Positions 10,611-36,729 of a stretch of 64,000 nt of DNA are shown here, piece after piece (the first letter of the stretch is position 1; each line of letters opens with the position of its first letter). The position numbers and the translations under genes are program-made. Under the pieces are notes generated by a model. The model did no database searches. It was not told the origin of the DNA and saw nothing but the letters and a program-made list of their open reading frames with translations. The DNA is from Patescibacteria group bacterium (GTDB taxonomy: Bacteria; Patescibacteriota; Patescibacteriia; UBA2591; UBA6264). The stretch lies in the NCBI GenBank assembly GCA_028713575.1, contig JAQTOB010000001.1:27619-91618 (forward strand), written 5' to 3'.

Positions 10611-10700
10611 AATAGTGAACTTAAAAATCAAAAATCAAAATGAAAAATAATAATATAAATAAATTTAAAATTTCTCCTAATTTTAATGCTGTTCCGTTTT

Positions 10701-26301: not shown

Positions 26302-27006
26302 TTATTTTCCATTAAGATTGTTCCTCTTTTTGTCCGGTAAACTATTTTTGAAAAATCGCCCAAAACCTAATGCTGATAAAAATTTTAGAAAAACATTTTT
26401 CAGAAATAATCCCCTTTTAATAATAAAAAAATCTTTGAAGTGACACCATTCTCTAACATCTTCCCCTAATTTTTGGATTAACGTCAAACTGTTAACTGGC
26501 GTTTTGACTATTTTATAGTTTTTCTTATTGTTTTTTATCCAAGAAACCACATACTGTGTAGACCTCATCCATGAATCGTGAAAAAGTATGTATCCTTTAT
26601 GATTTAGCAATAAATCAATGTAATAAAAATCAATAAAAATGTCATCAAATTTATGGCCTCCATCAATAAAAGCAAAATCTATTTTTACGTTCTTTTTCAG
26701 TAACCCCGGTAAAACATTGTGTGAAAAATCATTTTTAAGATTAAGATACTTTTTCAGGCCCAATTTTTCCATATTCTCCAAACCAAGATTAAAATATAGT
26801 CCTTGTGAAGGATCTATGACATAGTGAATGCTTTTAGTTGCAGAAATGATATAAGCCGTTGAACAACCGTAAGCAAATCCCACCTCAAGTGTTTTTTTTA
26901 GATTATTATCCTTAAGAAAATTGTAAATATATTCGCCCTCTGTCTCAGTGATAGAAGTTGCCTTGTCTCCGTTAGGGATTTCTAGTTGTTGATAAATTCC
27001 GGTCAT
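26302..27006 (-). CDS. class I SAM-dependent methyltransferase (O-methyltransferase-like)
   Basis: LEVGFAYGCSTAYI...FAFIDGGH motif arrangement. Confidence 0.55.
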   Translation of the reverse strand: MTGIYQQLEIPNGDKATSITETEGEYIYNFLKDNNLKKTLEVGFAYGCSTAYIISATKSIHYVIDPSQGLYFNLGLENMEKLGLKKYLNLKNDFSHNVLPGLLKKNVKIDFAFIDGGHKFDDIFIDFYYIDLLLNHKGYILFHDSWMRSTQYVVSWIKNNKKNYKIVKTPVNSLTLIQKLGEDVREWCHFKDFFIIKRGLFLKNVFLKFLSALGFGRFFKNSLPDKKRNNLNGK

Positions 27007-27185
27007 AATCCAAAAAAAAATTAAAATTTATTAAGTTTTATATTAAAGGCTCTTCCTTAATTTTGTATATTTGCAATGTCTATAATATTATCATTTATAA
27101 CGGGGATTTAGGGACCGCCCCCCCCCTTTCTCTCTCCGCAAACTTGCTCTAGAAGAGAATTTTAGGGCGTTTTTTAAAATTTAGA

Positions 27186-27203
27186 ACTATTTCGACTACT
27201 CGG
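27186..27203. repeat. degenerate partial copy (TATTTCGACTACT) of the palindrome-bearing repeat, 3' of the transposase gene
   Basis: Shares ATTCGACTACT with the repeats at 27828 and 29151. Confidence 0.35.
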
Positions 27204-27204
27204 A

Positions 27205-27807
27205 TTAAATAAATCTTTCGTTCTTAATAAATTTCGGCTTTGGGGGATTTTTGGATTCCTCTTTAACAAATTCTATATAATCCTGACGAAGTCCTTCTAT
27301 CTCTCTTTCTCCGCTATATTCCAAAAAACGATTTCTATCAATTAAATCATCATTGTATTCCTTTTGAAAATAAACCGAAAAACTGCTCCAAAGATAATCT
27401 TCTAATTTTTTACAAAGCCCCGCCCGTAAAGCATTCAGATCAATATAGGCGCTAACCGCCCAAAAATAAGATTCTGTATTTATTAGAGAGGCATAAAATC
27501 TATCCTGAAATAAATGGCCCTTTCTTTTATATCTTCTATTAAAATATCCTGCATAATAACTATTAATGTAATGCATTATCTTGGAAACGACAACTTCGCC
27601 GACTTCTACGTATAAATGAAAATGGTTTGGAAGTAAATTATAGGAATAAAGATAAAAACCAAACATTTTTTTTGCCCTTTTCAAAATCGTCAAAAATTTC
27701 TTATAATCCTGTGGTGCTCGGAAAATACATCGTTGATTAACACCACGACAAACTATGTGATATAAAGCACCATTAGTAATAATTTTTTCCCTTGTTTTTC
27801 GGGGCAT
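27205..27807 (-). CDS. IS200/IS605-family Y1 HUH transposase of the REP-associated (RAYT-like) type
   Basis: ALYHIVCRGVNQRCIF, HUH motif LLPNHFHLYV, YAGYFNRRYKRKGHLFQDRFYASLI and YIDLNALRAGL match the Y1_Tnp / RAYT consensus. Confidence 0.8.
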   Translation of the reverse strand: MPRKTREKIITNGALYHIVCRGVNQRCIFRAPQDYKKFLTILKRAKKMFGFYLYSYNLLPNHFHLYVEVGEVVVSKIMHYINSYYAGYFNRRYKRKGHLFQDRFYASLINTESYFWAVSAYIDLNALRAGLCKKLEDYLWSSFSVYFQKEYNDDLIDRNRFLEYSGEREIEGLRQDYIEFVKEESKNPPKPKFIKNERFI

Positions 27808-27827
27808 TTTATTAAATTAGTCGATAT

Positions 27828-27915
27828 TCGACTACTTTTTAAAAATTGTCTTACAACCCGCTTCTAGTAATGATTTTAGAATGGTATTTTTAGGGGACAG
27901 TCCCCTTTTTATAAA
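27828..27915. repeat. ~90-bp direct repeat, copy A, with two perfect palindromes (AGTCGATATTCGACT and AGGGGACAGTCCCCT)
   Basis: Near-identical to 29151..29248, with 2 to 3 mismatches. It lies 20 bp upstream of the transposase start codon. Confidence 0.8.
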
Positions 27916-27972
27916 ACGACGAGGCGCGAGGAATGTGGTCGTATATGCCGTGTTGGGTGATGTAAAAAACGG

Positions 27973-28935
27973 TTATTTCAAATAGTGATTCAAATTAATC
28001 TCAACAAAAAAATATTTTTCTCCTCTTTTTGCAAGAAAAAATAAAATTCCATTTTTATCGAGTTCAATTGGATAAGCAAAAATCGCACAACAGCTGTTAG
28101 TTCTTATTTCATCAAAATCCCGAGAAATTTTTTGACCATTAAAGAAAAAAAATTTTTTTTCATCTTTTTCACCTACGAATCCTATATTGTCTTTATATGC
28201 AAATAAATGTGAACTTGCTTCAACTAAATATTTCTCATTGATCGTTTCATCATTATACCAAATATTTCGCTCCACAATTGGCGTATTCTTATCCTTCCAC
28301 TCCTTGAGATCGTAAAAAGTGAATGCGGGTGAATTTAGTATCATGCTTGCATCTTCAATAACACTTTCCGCTCCGAAATACATTTTATGGGAAAAAATTT
28401 CTTGCTCATTTTTAAAAATAGAATAATTGTCGTCGCCTTTGATGTTTCCAATAGTATAAACGTCCTTACTAAAACCATAAGATTCTGCTGTTTGTTTAAT
28501 ATTAATATTATTTATTAAATCTTTTCTAAATTCAGGGTTAATTATTAAACACCAATTATCTGGACCACATTCAGCCACTTTAAATTCCGGTGGTAGATTA
28601 TTTTTATATGCTTGCAAGCCAACTATTGAACAATTATCTTTTGTGCCATTTCTACATTCAATTTTGTATTGCAAGTGATACATTGGCGTTCGTCCCTGGA
28701 TTTCATGATTTTGGTTATACCAAAAATTTTTTCCTTGTTTTTGAAGTCGGGTTATTTCTTTTCTGATTAGTGTGAAAATATCATCAACGGTTTCACTTGT
28801 AAGAGTTGTTTCTATTTCATGGTAAATTTGAGATTGGCTATCAACGGGAATTTTATTTTCCCTGTTTTCAATTTGAGAGGTCGTGCACCCCGCTAAAAAA
28901 AATCCCATTATCAGTAGAAAAAAATATTTCTCCAT
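27973..28935 (-). CDS. hypothetical lipoprotein flanked by the direct repeats
   Basis: Signal peptide plus lipobox (LLIMGFFLAGC); cysteine-containing, with no recognisable domain. Confidence 0.6.
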   Translation of the reverse strand: MEKYFFLLIMGFFLAGCTTSQIENRENKIPVDSQSQIYHEIETTLTSETVDDIFTLIRKEITRLQKQGKNFWYNQNHEIQGRTPMYHLQYKIECRNGTKDNCSIVGLQAYKNNLPPEFKVAECGPDNWCLIINPEFRKDLINNINIKQTAESYGFSKDVYTIGNIKGDDNYSIFKNEQEIFSHKMYFGAESVIEDASMILNSPAFTFYDLKEWKDKNTPIVERNIWYNDETINEKYLVEASSHLFAYKDNIGFVGEKDEKKFFFFNGQKISRDFDEIRTNSCCAIFAYPIELDKNGILFFLAKRGEKYFFVEINLNHYLK

Positions 28936-29150
28936 AAATGTTTAATTGGTTTTATTTATATTATAAGCGAACTTTTTTATTTTGCTTAACGTCAGGAACC
29001 TCCGAAGTTTTTTTGGAACGAAGTAAAAGAAAAATTCGGGAAAATTGCAAGCTGAACAATTTTTCTTTTATCCCTTGTTATGCAAATTTAAACTATTTAA
29101 ACTAAATCGTATTGTATTACATATTTGAGAAACAACCCCTTTTGGTCCCG

Positions 29151-29248
29151 TAGTCGATATTCGACTATTTTTTAAAAATTGTCTTACAACCCGCTTCTAG
29201 TAATGATTTTAGGATGGTATTTTTAGGGGACAGTCCCCTTTTTATAAG
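29151..29248. repeat. ~90-bp direct repeat, copy B, followed by a short 3x tandem repeat GTCCC(C)TTTTTAT at 29235..29285
   Basis: Copy B carries the same two palindromes as copy A. Confidence 0.8.
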
Positions 29249-29373
29249 TCCCCTTTTTATTGAAGGTCCCTTTTTATTGAAGTAATATTGACTTCTCGTT
29301 GCCTATTAAACGAATTTTAAGTATAATGTCTTTGCTTCTTAAGTTTACCACTCTTAAAATAACAGGCAATATT

Positions 29374-29832
29374 ATGTCAATTACCCCAACCTATTCGGAA
29401 AAACAAACATTTGATTTAGGTAAAAAATTCGCGGAAAAACTCCAAGGCGGAGAAGTTATCGGTTTAACCGGCGATTTAGGCGCGGGAAAAACCGTATTCA
29501 TTAAAGGTTTAGCAAAAGGACTGAAAATTGAACAAATTATCAACAGTCCGACATTTGTTTTGATGAAATTATACAAAATCAATTCAAAATTCAAAAATCA
29601 AAATGCAAAATTACAATGCAAAATTCAAAATTTAGTTCATGTAGACGCCTATCGTTTAAATTCTAGTCAAGAATTAATTAACGTTGGCATTGAAGATTAT
29701 CTGGAAAAGAAAAATGCGATTGTTGTGATTGAATGGGGGGAAAAAGTGAAAGATATTTTGCCAAAAGACAAGATTTCTGTTAAAATAAAGTTTGGGGGGA
29801 AAAAAAATGAAAGAGTAATAAGAATAAAATAA
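29374..29832 (+). CDS. tsaE: tRNA threonylcarbamoyladenosine biosynthesis protein TsaE (P-loop ATPase) with a low-complexity in-frame insertion
   Basis: GEVIGLTGDLGAGKTVFIKGLAKGL...INSPTFVLMKLY[KINSKFKNQNAKLQCKIQN]LVHVDAYRL. The start is placed at the ATG at 29374, downstream of a TATAAT at 29322; the tracked start 29299 lies inside the repeat. Confidence 0.8.
   Translation: MSITPTYSEKQTFDLGKKFAEKLQGGEVIGLTGDLGAGKTVFIKGLAKGLKIEQIINSPTFVLMKLYKINSKFKNQNAKLQCKIQNLVHVDAYRLNSSQELINVGIEDYLEKKNAIVVIEWGEKVKDILPKDKISVKIKFGGKKNERVIRIK
29575..29640. repeat. AT-rich 'caaaat(g/c)caaaat' repeat element lying inside the tsaE coding sequence
   Basis: aaatcaattcaaaattcaaaaatcaaaatgcaaaattacaatgcaaaattcaaaattt; the same motif family as 17281..17340, 52075..52170 and 54915..55012. 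Confidence 0.6.
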
Positions 29833-35361: not shown

Positions 35362-36729
35362 TTACTGATTATACAATCTTTGTTTAATCAAATCTACTTC
35401 TTGTTTAATCCGACTGTTTATTTCTATTTCTCTTTTTATTTTTTCATAGGCGTGCATAGCCGTGGTATGGTCGCGATTACCCAATTCCTTCCCAATTAAG
35501 GGAAAAGAAGCTCTTGTTTCTTCTCTCATTAAATACATAGCAACTTGTCGCGGGGCAACCAATTCTCTTTTTCTTGAAGAGCTAATCATTTCATTTAATT
35601 GAATCCCATAAAAATTTGCCACTGTTTCAATTAATTCCTTGTTTTGGATAAAACCTCTTTTTCCATGACTCTCTAAACTGACTAAAATATTTTTTACTAA
35701 AGATAAATCTATTTCTATTTGATGAAACTCTTGGTAAGCGATTAATTTATTAAGAGACCCCTCCAATTCCCTAACATTTCTTTGAACATGAGAAGCTAAA
35801 TATTGAAGTATTTCCTCACTTAAATCACATTTTCTCTCTTGACATTTTACTCTCAGGATAGCTAACCTTGTTTCCATGTCTGGTGGTGTAATGTCAACAA
35901 TCAACCCCCATCCTAGCCGTGAGGTCAAGCGCTCTTCAAGGGCCGGAATGTCCTTGGGCGTACGGTCAGAAGTAATCACTATTTGTCTTCCGTCTTGATA
36001 AAGACTGTTAAAGGTATGAAAAAATTCTTCTTGTGTTCTATCTTTTCCTGCCATAAATTGAATGTCATCAATCAAGAAAACATCTAATTCCCTGTAAAAT
36101 TTTTTAAATTTATCAATTGTTCCGTTGCCGATAGCTTGAACAAATTCATTGGTAAATTTTTCCGCATTAGTATAAAGAATTTTTGCCTTGGGAATTTTTT
36201 CTAAAACAGCGTGTCCTATTGCCTGAAGAAGATGAGTTTTGCCCAGTCCCACGCCCCCATAAATAAAAAGCGGGTTATATTTTTTCCCCGGATTTTTAAC
36301 CACTGCTTGGCAAGCGGCATAAGCCAATTCTGACCCCTTACCAACAACAAAATTTTTAAAAGTATAACAAATATTTAATCCATAACCATTAGTTTTTGCC
36401 ATCCCTTTTTCTGATATTTTTTCCAAATCAATTACTATTGGTTTTTGTTCTTTAGCGGGAAAAACTTGTTCAACATTATAAAAAACTTTTTTTACCCTAT
36501 TGTCTGTCGCTCCTTGTAGGGCTTCAAGAATGGCGTGATGATATTTCTTTTCCAGCCAATTTTTGGAAAAATTATTAGGAACATTAACAATAACCGTTTC
36601 TCCGCTATCTTTCAATTCCGATATACTGGTATTTTGAAACCAAGTTTTAAAATTGGCCTTGGAAATTGATAATTCTAATTCCGATAAAACAATGTCCCAA
36701 AGTTGTTTTTTATTATTTATTTCCATCAT
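35362..36729 (-). CDS. dnaA: chromosomal replication initiator protein DnaA
   Basis: AAA+ Walker A GGVGLGKTHLLQAIG, the box VII / sensor region and the C-terminal DNA-binding domain. Confidence 0.9.
   Translation of the reverse strand: MMEINNKKQLWDIVLSELELSISKANFKTWFQNTSISELKDSGETVIVNVPNNFSKNWLEKKYHHAILEALQGATDNRVKKVFYNVEQVFPAKEQKPIVIDLEKISEKGMAKTNGYGLNICYTFKNFVVGKGSELAYAACQAVVKNPGKKYNPLFIYGGVGLGKTHLLQAIGHAVLEKIPKAKILYTNAEKFTNEFVQAIGNGTIDKFKKFYRELDVFLIDDIQFMAGKDRTQEEFFHTFNSLYQDGRQIVITSDRTPKDIPALEERLTSRLGWGLIVDITPPDMETRLAILRVKCQERKCDLSEEILQYLASHVQRNVRELEGSLNKLIAYQEFHQIEIDLSLVKNILVSLESHGKRGFIQNKELIETVANFYGIQLNEMISSSRKRELVAPRQVAMYLMREETRASFPLIGKELGNRDHTTAMHAYEKIKREIEINSRIKQEVDLIKQRLYNQ

Follow-up and report, generated by a model that had tools for sequence, protein, structure and literature searches.

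A probable TIRtron in Patescibacteria: a RAYT-type Y1/HUH gene and its terminal inverted repeats of about 95 nucleotides

The window, the stretch of DNA analysed here, comprises 64,000 nucleotides (nt) of contig JAQTOB010000001.1 from a Patescibacteria group bacterium (assembly GCA_028713575.1). An open reading frame (ORF) at 27205..27807 encodes a tyrosine 'transposase' of the Y1/HUH superfamily and of the type associated with repetitive extragenic palindromic (REP) sequences (RAYT). Long, hairpin-bearing repeat units lie on both sides of this gene and around the neighboring lipoprotein gene. The original prediction, which was made from the sequence alone, had recognized the enzyme and most of the repeats and had suggested an undescribed REPIN-like or cassette-like unit. 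The features of the locus are listed below; repeat units were scored in bits with a covariance model built from 13 diverse units.

26314..26424, minus strand: unit D, a relic oriented like unit A, with both palindromes decayed (42.5 bits, E=2e-5)
~27095..27199, plus strand: unit C, the degenerate 3' terminal inverted repeat (family I1; local alignment to A; 24.5 bits, E=0.058)
27205..27807, minus strand: gene for the Y1/HUH tyrosine 'transposase', RAYT/TIRYT type, 200 amino acids (aa), assigned by Pfam, NCBIfam, alignment and a structure model
27814..27914, minus strand: unit A, the 5' terminal inverted repeat of the Y1 gene (direct repeat family D1; 103.7 bits)
27973..28935, minus strand: lipoprotein gene, 320 aa, between units B and A, with the lipobox LAGC (…FFLAGC…) read from the sequence
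29147..29247, minus strand: unit B, an additional solo copy of the 5' repeat, oriented as A and 98% identical to it (D1; 99.5 bits)
29247..29277, minus strand: two truncated unit-tip copies (AAAAAGGGGAC...), stacked beside unit B (family D2)

The Y1 gene and its repeat units

The motif LPNHFHLYV, from which the ORF had been called a Y1 or RAYT transposase, is present in its product, and several independent comparisons uphold that identification. Y1_Tnp, the sole Pfam domain found, matches residues 14-123 (E=6e-16). The best-scoring NCBIfam family is REP_Tyr_transpos with 64.6 bits, which does not reach the cut-off of 80 bits for this equivalog (NF047646); the IS200 family gives 19.1 bits against a cut-off of 55 bits. 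The HUH motif is formed by H62 and H64, the catalytic tyrosine is Y121 within YIDLN, and all three residues are invariant in a 31-member alignment. A profile search finds only one sequence relative in the PDB, E. coli TnpA-REP (4ER8, E=4e-6), and the best Foldseek match to an AlphaFold2 model of the protein (predicted local distance difference test score 88) is likewise 4er8_A (E=1e-8, target-normalised TM-score 0.70), which outranks the IS200, IS608 and ISDra2 transposases. We conclude that the ORF encodes a RAYT-type Y1 enzyme with the TnpA-REP fold and with intact HUH histidines and tyrosine. After residue 140 the model contains short helices only; the alignment reveals that distant homologues (P0115, P0117 and P0120) have a C-terminal extension, before which the window's family stops. 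A database search recovers this family as more than 100 clusters of 197-206 aa with 50-79% identity, from Patescibacteria metagenomes and metagenome-assembled genomes (MAGs), and several members carry the JGI name RayT. The window holds no further transposase among its ORFs of at least 150 aa, as had been predicted; these are otherwise housekeeping genes of an AT-rich Patescibacteria genome. A phage or plasmid origin of the Y1 gene was considered and rejected, the best tblastn identities there being 27-41%.

The direct repeats bracketing the lipoprotein gene, originally described as about 90 bp long, are real. They span 97 nt with 2 mismatches, at 27818-27914 (A) and 29151-29247 (B); the start of the first had been misplaced by 10 nt. 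On the gene strand, a unit runs from an outer tip palindrome through ~55 variable nt and an AT palindrome, TTTTTAAAAA, to an inner hairpin. In unit A the tip palindrome is GGGGAC-T-GTCCCC (27892-27906), and the inner hairpin, GTAGTCGA-ATA-TCGACTA (27818-27834), finishes 10 nt ahead of the Y1 ATG. The perfect hairpin and the perfect 15-bp palindrome that had been noticed in each repeat both occur exactly twice in the window and far above chance: 0.07 sites are expected for TAGTCGA-TAT-TCGACTA (at up to 3 mismatches) and 0.48 for AGGGGACAGTCCCCT. A GGGGWSAS motif is present as GGGGACAG at 27893-27900 and 29226-29233, and the inner hairpin, GTAGTCGA-ATA-TCGACTAC, fits the form of a GTAG palindrome and occurs only twice in the 64 kb. 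Unit B is positioned 215 nt upstream of the lipoprotein start codon. Its own tip and the two truncated copies beside it make up the three GTCCC(C)TTTTTAT pieces (29232-29277) that had correctly been read as a threefold repeat following this unit.

A degenerate third copy at the 3' end of the Y1 gene had also been proposed. It is present, not as a 12-nt match but as an inverted copy of ~95 nt. This unit, C, begins 5 nt beyond the Y1 stop codon, is 71% complementary to the direct repeat across 51 nt, and shares 77-78% identity with the 3' repeats that accompany related elements of other organisms (L011, L013 and L015). Since an inverted copy, however degenerate, lies 5 nt past the stop codon, the gene is framed by terminal inverted repeats of ~95 nt. 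A homopolymer of nine C, which reads as G on the gene strand, occupies 27121-27129, inside the decayed tip of unit C. A fourth copy, the relic D, had been missed altogether. Its alignment to A scores 62, compared to 27.7 +/- 4.8 (maximum 47) for shuffled sequences. The last ~35 codons of a methyltransferase ORF (26302-27006) now come from this relic; mobile-repeat DNA has thus been recruited as the C-terminal tail of that ORF.

When folded as single-stranded (ss) DNA, units A (z=-3.9) and B (z=-2.6) give two terminal hairpins, and the fold of C is not significant (z=-0.4). The RNAalifold consensus likewise consists of two independent terminal hairpins only, with no universal internal stem; a third stem proposed by hand has 68% pairing and is absent from the window's own units. 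At the unit borders no target-site motif was established, and inspection gives a loose TTAT or T-rich 5' flank. The window also contains a second repeat family, AAAAATCAAAAATCAAAATG, with 10 matches at up to 3 mismatches where 0.54 are expected (positions 10623, 18105, 29586, 31289, 31469, 52089, 54936/54987 and 56895). Some of its copies fall within the TsaE and ValRS ORFs and there code for inserts rich in K, N, Q and I, and one inverted pair lies between TGT and RecO.

Orthologous loci, units elsewhere and strain variation

Eight orthologous Y1 loci from other Patescibacteria were compared. Their flanking repeats, of ~80-110 nt, are inverted at seven of the eight and direct at one (L039). 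Alignment of the upstream flank with the reverse-complemented downstream flank reveals the inverted repeats in the window and at L028, L030, L032, L033, L036 and L041, and the covariance model recovers every repeat seen in this way. The tip palindrome varies, and its variants alter on both arms together (GGGGAC/GTCCCC, GGTGAC/GTCACC, GGGGTC/GACCCC); at orthologous loci with inverted repeats, its central base is A upstream and T downstream. The GGGGWSAS motif reads GGGGTCAG at L033, L036, L039 and L041, and has the variant form GGTGACAG at L028 and L030. Each Y1 protein is found at one locus per assembly, in up to 23 assemblies. The order Wzy_C-TPR-Y1 is common to P0011, P0020 and P0028, which are 61-72% identical, and a giant protein-Y1-WxLIP-HDAC order is common to P0058 and P0051. 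The Y1 genes of the window and of L036 lie on opposite sides of a dnaA-T2SSE-ValRS block; therefore the gene has relocated at least once. Overall, the Y1 gene is single-copy, vertically inherited and often syntenic.

Units also occur away from Y1 genes. Searching a metagenome for the inner hairpin, and genomes for the tip-gap-hairpin arrangement, revealed units 75-82% identical to those of the window in contigs with no other similarity to it; the tip is conserved in all of these units. An exact scan of genome contigs for the tip plus flank (24 nt) gave 0 matches. The gapped two-hairpin pattern gave 9 loci, 4 of which are true (in two MAGs) and 5 of which are chance matches in high-GC genomes. 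One MAG, GCA_964531505.1 (L020, L022, L025 and L039), has at least four units on three contigs and a Y1 gene on a fourth. This assembly is titled 'uncultured Gammaproteobacteria', a title that is probably wrong: its GC content is ~30-33%, and it has Patescibacteria-type genes and the Y1 family.

Some units are arranged as gene-less inverted doublets of ~305 nt, in which ~110 nt of spacer separate a 5' repeat from a 3' repeat. Four such elements were found (L011/L025, L013/L015/L020, L014 and L017), of which L014 and L017 are near-identical with differing flanks. As ssDNA, the two tips of a doublet pair together (z -4.1), a form like that of REPINs or of miniature inverted-repeat transposable elements. 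The doublets at L011, L013, L014 and L017, in their differing contexts, look like non-autonomous derivatives of the Y1 element; no target-site duplication was recognized at the gene-less doublets, and the window contains no doublet. All four carry an extended -10 box, TG(G/T)TATAATAAAA (TGnTATAAT), at the same spacer position, pointing to the 3' repeat (spacers L011 9357-9462, L013 342-448, L014 6987-7092 and L017 2655-2760), and doublets may thus give rise to a small transcript or act as an outward promoter. At L015 (3954-4112), the homology of a GIY-YIG ORF to its intact relatives ends exactly at the 5' tip of the unit, and the C-terminal ~30 residues are missing. A clean insertion into this ORF was rejected, since the C-terminal part is absent past the doublet, which makes it a truncation. 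Because units 75-82% identical are found singly, clustered and as inverted doublets without a gene, and in contexts that are unrelated, the units must have been mobile.

Within the source species, the repeats are present in separate assemblies as well (L001, L003 and L008), and the number and position of units vary by strain (L001, L008 and L004 compared to the window). L001 is 98.9% identical to the window but has 2.6 kb between TsaE and unit B, where the window has 139 nt. This is a replacement polymorphism, in which window positions 29250-29388, including the TsaE promoter region, correspond to L001 5971-8547. The extra DNA of L001 contains a gene for a 270-aa Phage_integrase protein abutting TsaE, an 85-aa ORF, a gene for a 234-aa HNH protein, extra units, and a block made of a unit and the first ~38 nt of the Y1 ORF. 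On the other side of the locus an alternative haplotype is seen: 16 nt past the MscL stop codon (~25876), L008 (3471-3957) and L004 (1971-2045) diverge from the window. After MscL these strains have stacked partial tips, a unit with a 35-nt 5' fragment of the Y1 gene, a further unit and the beginning of a CYTH-like ORF; the window has an OCD gene there and lacks the CYTH-like ORF. Thus, a unit together with the first 35-38 nt of the Y1 ORF has been copied as a block in both L001 and L008. Truncated tip copies of 11-50 nt, anchored at their 5' end (AAAAAGGGGAC...), are found in the window (29247-29277), in L008 (3472-3542) and in L001 (8309-8407), and similar tandem copies lie upstream of the L030 Y1 gene. 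The stacked partial tips and the unit-plus-ORF-start blocks could reflect palindrome slippage or abortive nick-and-copy events. The strains contain mixtures of A-type and B-type substitutions, which, together with the 98% identity of B to A, indicates recent copying or gene conversion.

The lipoprotein gene between B and A has no Pfam or NCBIfam match and has homologues in ~50 Patescibacteria clusters. All same-species contigs recovered carry it with the same flanks. A supposed different cassette in L001 (309 instead of 320 aa) turned out to be the same gene within the alignment of 98.9% nucleotide identity. Three homologue loci in other genomes (L043-L045) lie in three differing contexts and have neither a Y1 gene nor a unit (covariance model, E<=1), and the idea that the lipoprotein is regular cargo was rejected on this basis. 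The gene is judged to be a resident bystander that merely happens to be situated between two units.

Relation to known systems and rival explanations

RAYT-like genes with long terminal inverted repeats in place of REPs have been described by Di Nocera et al. (2013; PMC3733652), who named them TIRtrons and their proteins TIRYTs. In that study the spacing between repeat and ORF is similar for many of the repeats, which have GGGGWSAS in common, and repeat copies are moderately abundant, being single, dimeric or clustered. The present locus resembles TIRtrons in each of these respects: its RAYT-like Y1 gene is enclosed by long terminal inverted repeats whose distance from the ORF is fixed, the GGGGWSAS motif is present (here as GGGGACAG), and repeat copies occur singly, in pairs and in clusters in moderate numbers. 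Extra copies, which belong to the TIRtron definition, are units B and D in the window, those in L001 and L008, and the solo units and doublets of other genomes. Some described TIRtron repeats are, moreover, self-complementary or double-palindromic. There are also differences. Most TIRYTs belong to TnpA-Y1 subclass 2.1 and have a C-terminal helix-turn-helix (HTH) (Quentin et al. 2018; PMC6006769), whereas the window's protein is short (200 aa) and has no such domain; therefore it is not a typical member of that subclass. The host belongs to the Patescibacteria, a phylum not found mentioned in the RAYT, REPIN and TIRYT literature searched, the ~95-nt repeat has a GTAG-tagged inner hairpin in the window's lineage, and the gene-less doublets have a conserved extended -10 box. 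The locus is probably a TIRtron, that is, an immobilised single-copy RAYT-like Y1/HUH gene within ~95-nt terminal inverted repeats with GGGGWSAS-type tips. The class itself is known, and what is new is a compact member of it in Patescibacteria. The original idea of a REPIN-like unit holds to the extent that the hairpin repeats belong to the Y1 enzyme and form gene-less inverted doublets in other genomes; the qualification 'undescribed' does not, given the published TIRtrons (PMC3733652, PMC6006769).

REPtrons, in which a RAYT is accompanied by REPs, REPINs or bacterial interspersed mosaic elements (BIMEs) (Nunvar 2010, Bertels & Rainey 2011, Ton-Hoang 2012, Messing 2012 with PDB 4ER8), provide the best relative in both sequence and fold. 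They share with this locus a single-copy, largely vertical gene between inverted hairpin repeats, GTAG in the inner hairpin, gene-less inverted doublets that can be folded tip to tip as in REPINs, and units in spacers between co-oriented genes. However, the units here are ~95 nt long and have two separate self-palindromes, compared to a REP of 20-40 nt; the 64 kb contain only 4 copies, each of them next to the gene, rather than tens to hundreds genome-wide; and the Y1 protein scores below the NCBIfam equivalog cut-off (64.6 vs 80). The doublets differ from non-autonomous elements mobilised by DDE transposases in that their presumed mobilising enzyme is a nuclease of the HUH/Y1 type with ssDNA hairpins as its substrate.

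Several observations weigh against assignment to the TIRtrons. The C-terminal HTH (Bac_DnaA_C, HTH_23, HTH_28) is missing from the 200-aa protein, and unit C has lost both hairpins. At E<=1 the covariance model finds only units A-D in the 64 kb, all within 3 kb, and the intact 22-nt inner hairpin motif has only 3 sites in the metagenome that holds this species, in a scan that missed the species' 517-kb contig. Proliferation here is thus minimal, and local duplication or gene conversion without any action of the enzyme could explain unit B. The unit-plus-ORF-start blocks look like imprecise duplication, not clean transposition. GCA_964531505.1 has window-type units, yet the only Y1 gene found in it has tips of the GGGGTC type. 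Finally, no biochemical activity is known for any TIRYT, and the mechanism given below is drawn by analogy.

The palindromes had been thought equally likely to be operator sites, and, more broadly, the units could be immobile DNA or RNA elements with a purely regulatory task, acting on adjacent genes as operators, terminators or a small RNA, with the Y1 gene as a mere neighbor. A co-oriented start codon usually follows a unit at a distance of 10-215 nt, and the TGnTATAAT box is kept in the gene-less doublets. On the plus strand, a T run comes after each of the two hairpins, which score as terminator-like, with 8 such sites in the region where 1.8 are expected, but this sense is antisense to all adjacent genes, and units such as those of L011 and L013 do not conserve the T run that follows the tip. 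A third internal stem is weakly supported (68% of cells paired, 5 of 8 pairs changed on both sides); however, no Rfam family matches the units in a scan of 26800-29500 at E<=10, and the gene strand of the unit yielded no sigma-70-like promoter. Units stand beside unrelated genes in unrelated genomes, and the palindromes tip inverted repeats that flank the Y1 gene at seven of the eight orthologous loci, which marks the units as mobile repeats linked to the enzyme; furthermore, relic D lies inside an ORF. A purely regulatory role is therefore unlikely, and operators are not on a par with the TIRtron assignment.

The suggestion of a cassette-like unit would make B-lipoprotein-A a gene cassette or composite element, excised or moved by the Y1 enzyme or by recombination between the direct repeats, as integron cassettes and composite transposons are. 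A single gene is indeed bracketed by 98%-identical direct repeats, and in at least one strain a unit is present in every spacer of the row lipoprotein / Y1+methyltransferase / MscL. As with integron attC sites, structured repeats of ~100 nt alternate with single co-oriented genes. At L039, one unit is directly upstream of the Y1 gene and another directly upstream of the next gene, and L028 has a unit and then a SIMPL gene between Na_Ca_ex and AspRS, neither of which is at that position in L032. Strain L001 has a tyrosine-recombinase gene 3 kb away. Lipoprotein homologues are found in three neighborhoods and many are on contigs of ~1.2-1.3 kb; the 1.3-kb contigs L009 and L010 each extend from within unit B to within unit A. 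Such short contigs, however, would also be produced by repeat-induced assembly breaks. No strain contig lacks the lipoprotein gene or has another gene between B and A, so the presence/absence variation of integron cassettes is not seen among same-species contigs, and the homologue loci L043-L045 have no units. Unit ends are separate self-palindromes, not the mutually complementary R''/L''-L'/R' boxes of attC, and the window has no IntI or other integron-type integrase. A cassette is thus quite improbable.

Alternatively, the locus could be a recent insertion of an autonomous IS200/IS605-type element, with the repeats as its ends or as remnants of tandem insertions. In common with TnpA of IS608 and ISDra2, the locus has the Y1_Tnp domain with its HUH/Y1 core, hairpins at both ends as presumed recognition elements, and an expected link to the lagging-strand template. 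In L001 and L008, the blocks of unit and Y1 5' fragment look like what truncated element copies would leave behind, and the gene has changed sides of the dnaA-T2SSE-ValRS block between the window and L036. Yet the IS200 family model gives only 19 bits against its cut-off of 55, the 200-aa protein has an extra, TnpA-REP-like C-terminal region, and no tnpB is present. The ends are inverted instead of being left-end and right-end hairpins on the same strand, and the 3' end is decayed here. The gene is not multi-copy, occupying one locus per assembly, with synteny kept across orthologues 61-72% identical to each other, and phages and plasmids offer no relative above 41% identity. This origin is accordingly very doubtful.

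A more speculative proposal, to which we would give very little credence, is that the units are more than selfish repeat copies and act as joints of Y1/HUH-driven gene shuffling in streamlined Patescibacteria, with unit-plus-gene modules copied or exchanged through single-strand nicking from the tip. If this were true, the truncated tip copies and the blocks of unit plus Y1 fragment would be abortive products, and the locus would represent an integron-like variable row that relies on an HUH enzyme rather than on a tyrosine recombinase.

Proposed mechanism and significance

If the locus is a TIRtron, unit A would be the 5' terminal repeat of the Y1 gene and C its decayed 3' repeat; B would be a recent solo copy of A, made by copying or gene conversion, and D an old relic copy. 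The action of E. coli TnpA-REP on REP/BIME DNA, and that of IS608, suggests by analogy that the enzyme would bind the hairpins that the unit palindromes form on ssDNA. It may then nick and rejoin the DNA at these hairpins, and so copy or move units in trans while its own gene stays put. Like REPs, the units occupy successive intergenic spacers of a row of co-oriented genes. The sense strand of the units is the likely template for lagging-strand synthesis. The plus strand has a negative GC skew throughout 10-64 kb, which suggests the same assignment, in line with this model, although co-orientation with the genes would explain the skew equally well. The locus lies between dnaA (35362-36729) and rpmH-rnpA-yidD-yidC (~17.2-18.2 kb), which are on the same strand ~17 kb apart, and the skew shows no switch at dnaA.

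TIRtrons are the least studied branch of the RAYTs, and this locus defines a compact and well-populated Patescibacteria lineage of them, with more than 100 protein clusters of 197-206 aa. Its sharply bounded ~95-nt repeats, tips that co-vary on both arms, and non-autonomous doublets offer natural pairs of substrate and enzyme for the study of DNA recognition and processing by TIRYTs. In annotation, such genes should not be named IS200 transposases. For the biology of the Patescibacteria, the locus means that very small, symbiont-type genomes retain a domesticated HUH enzyme together with its repeats.

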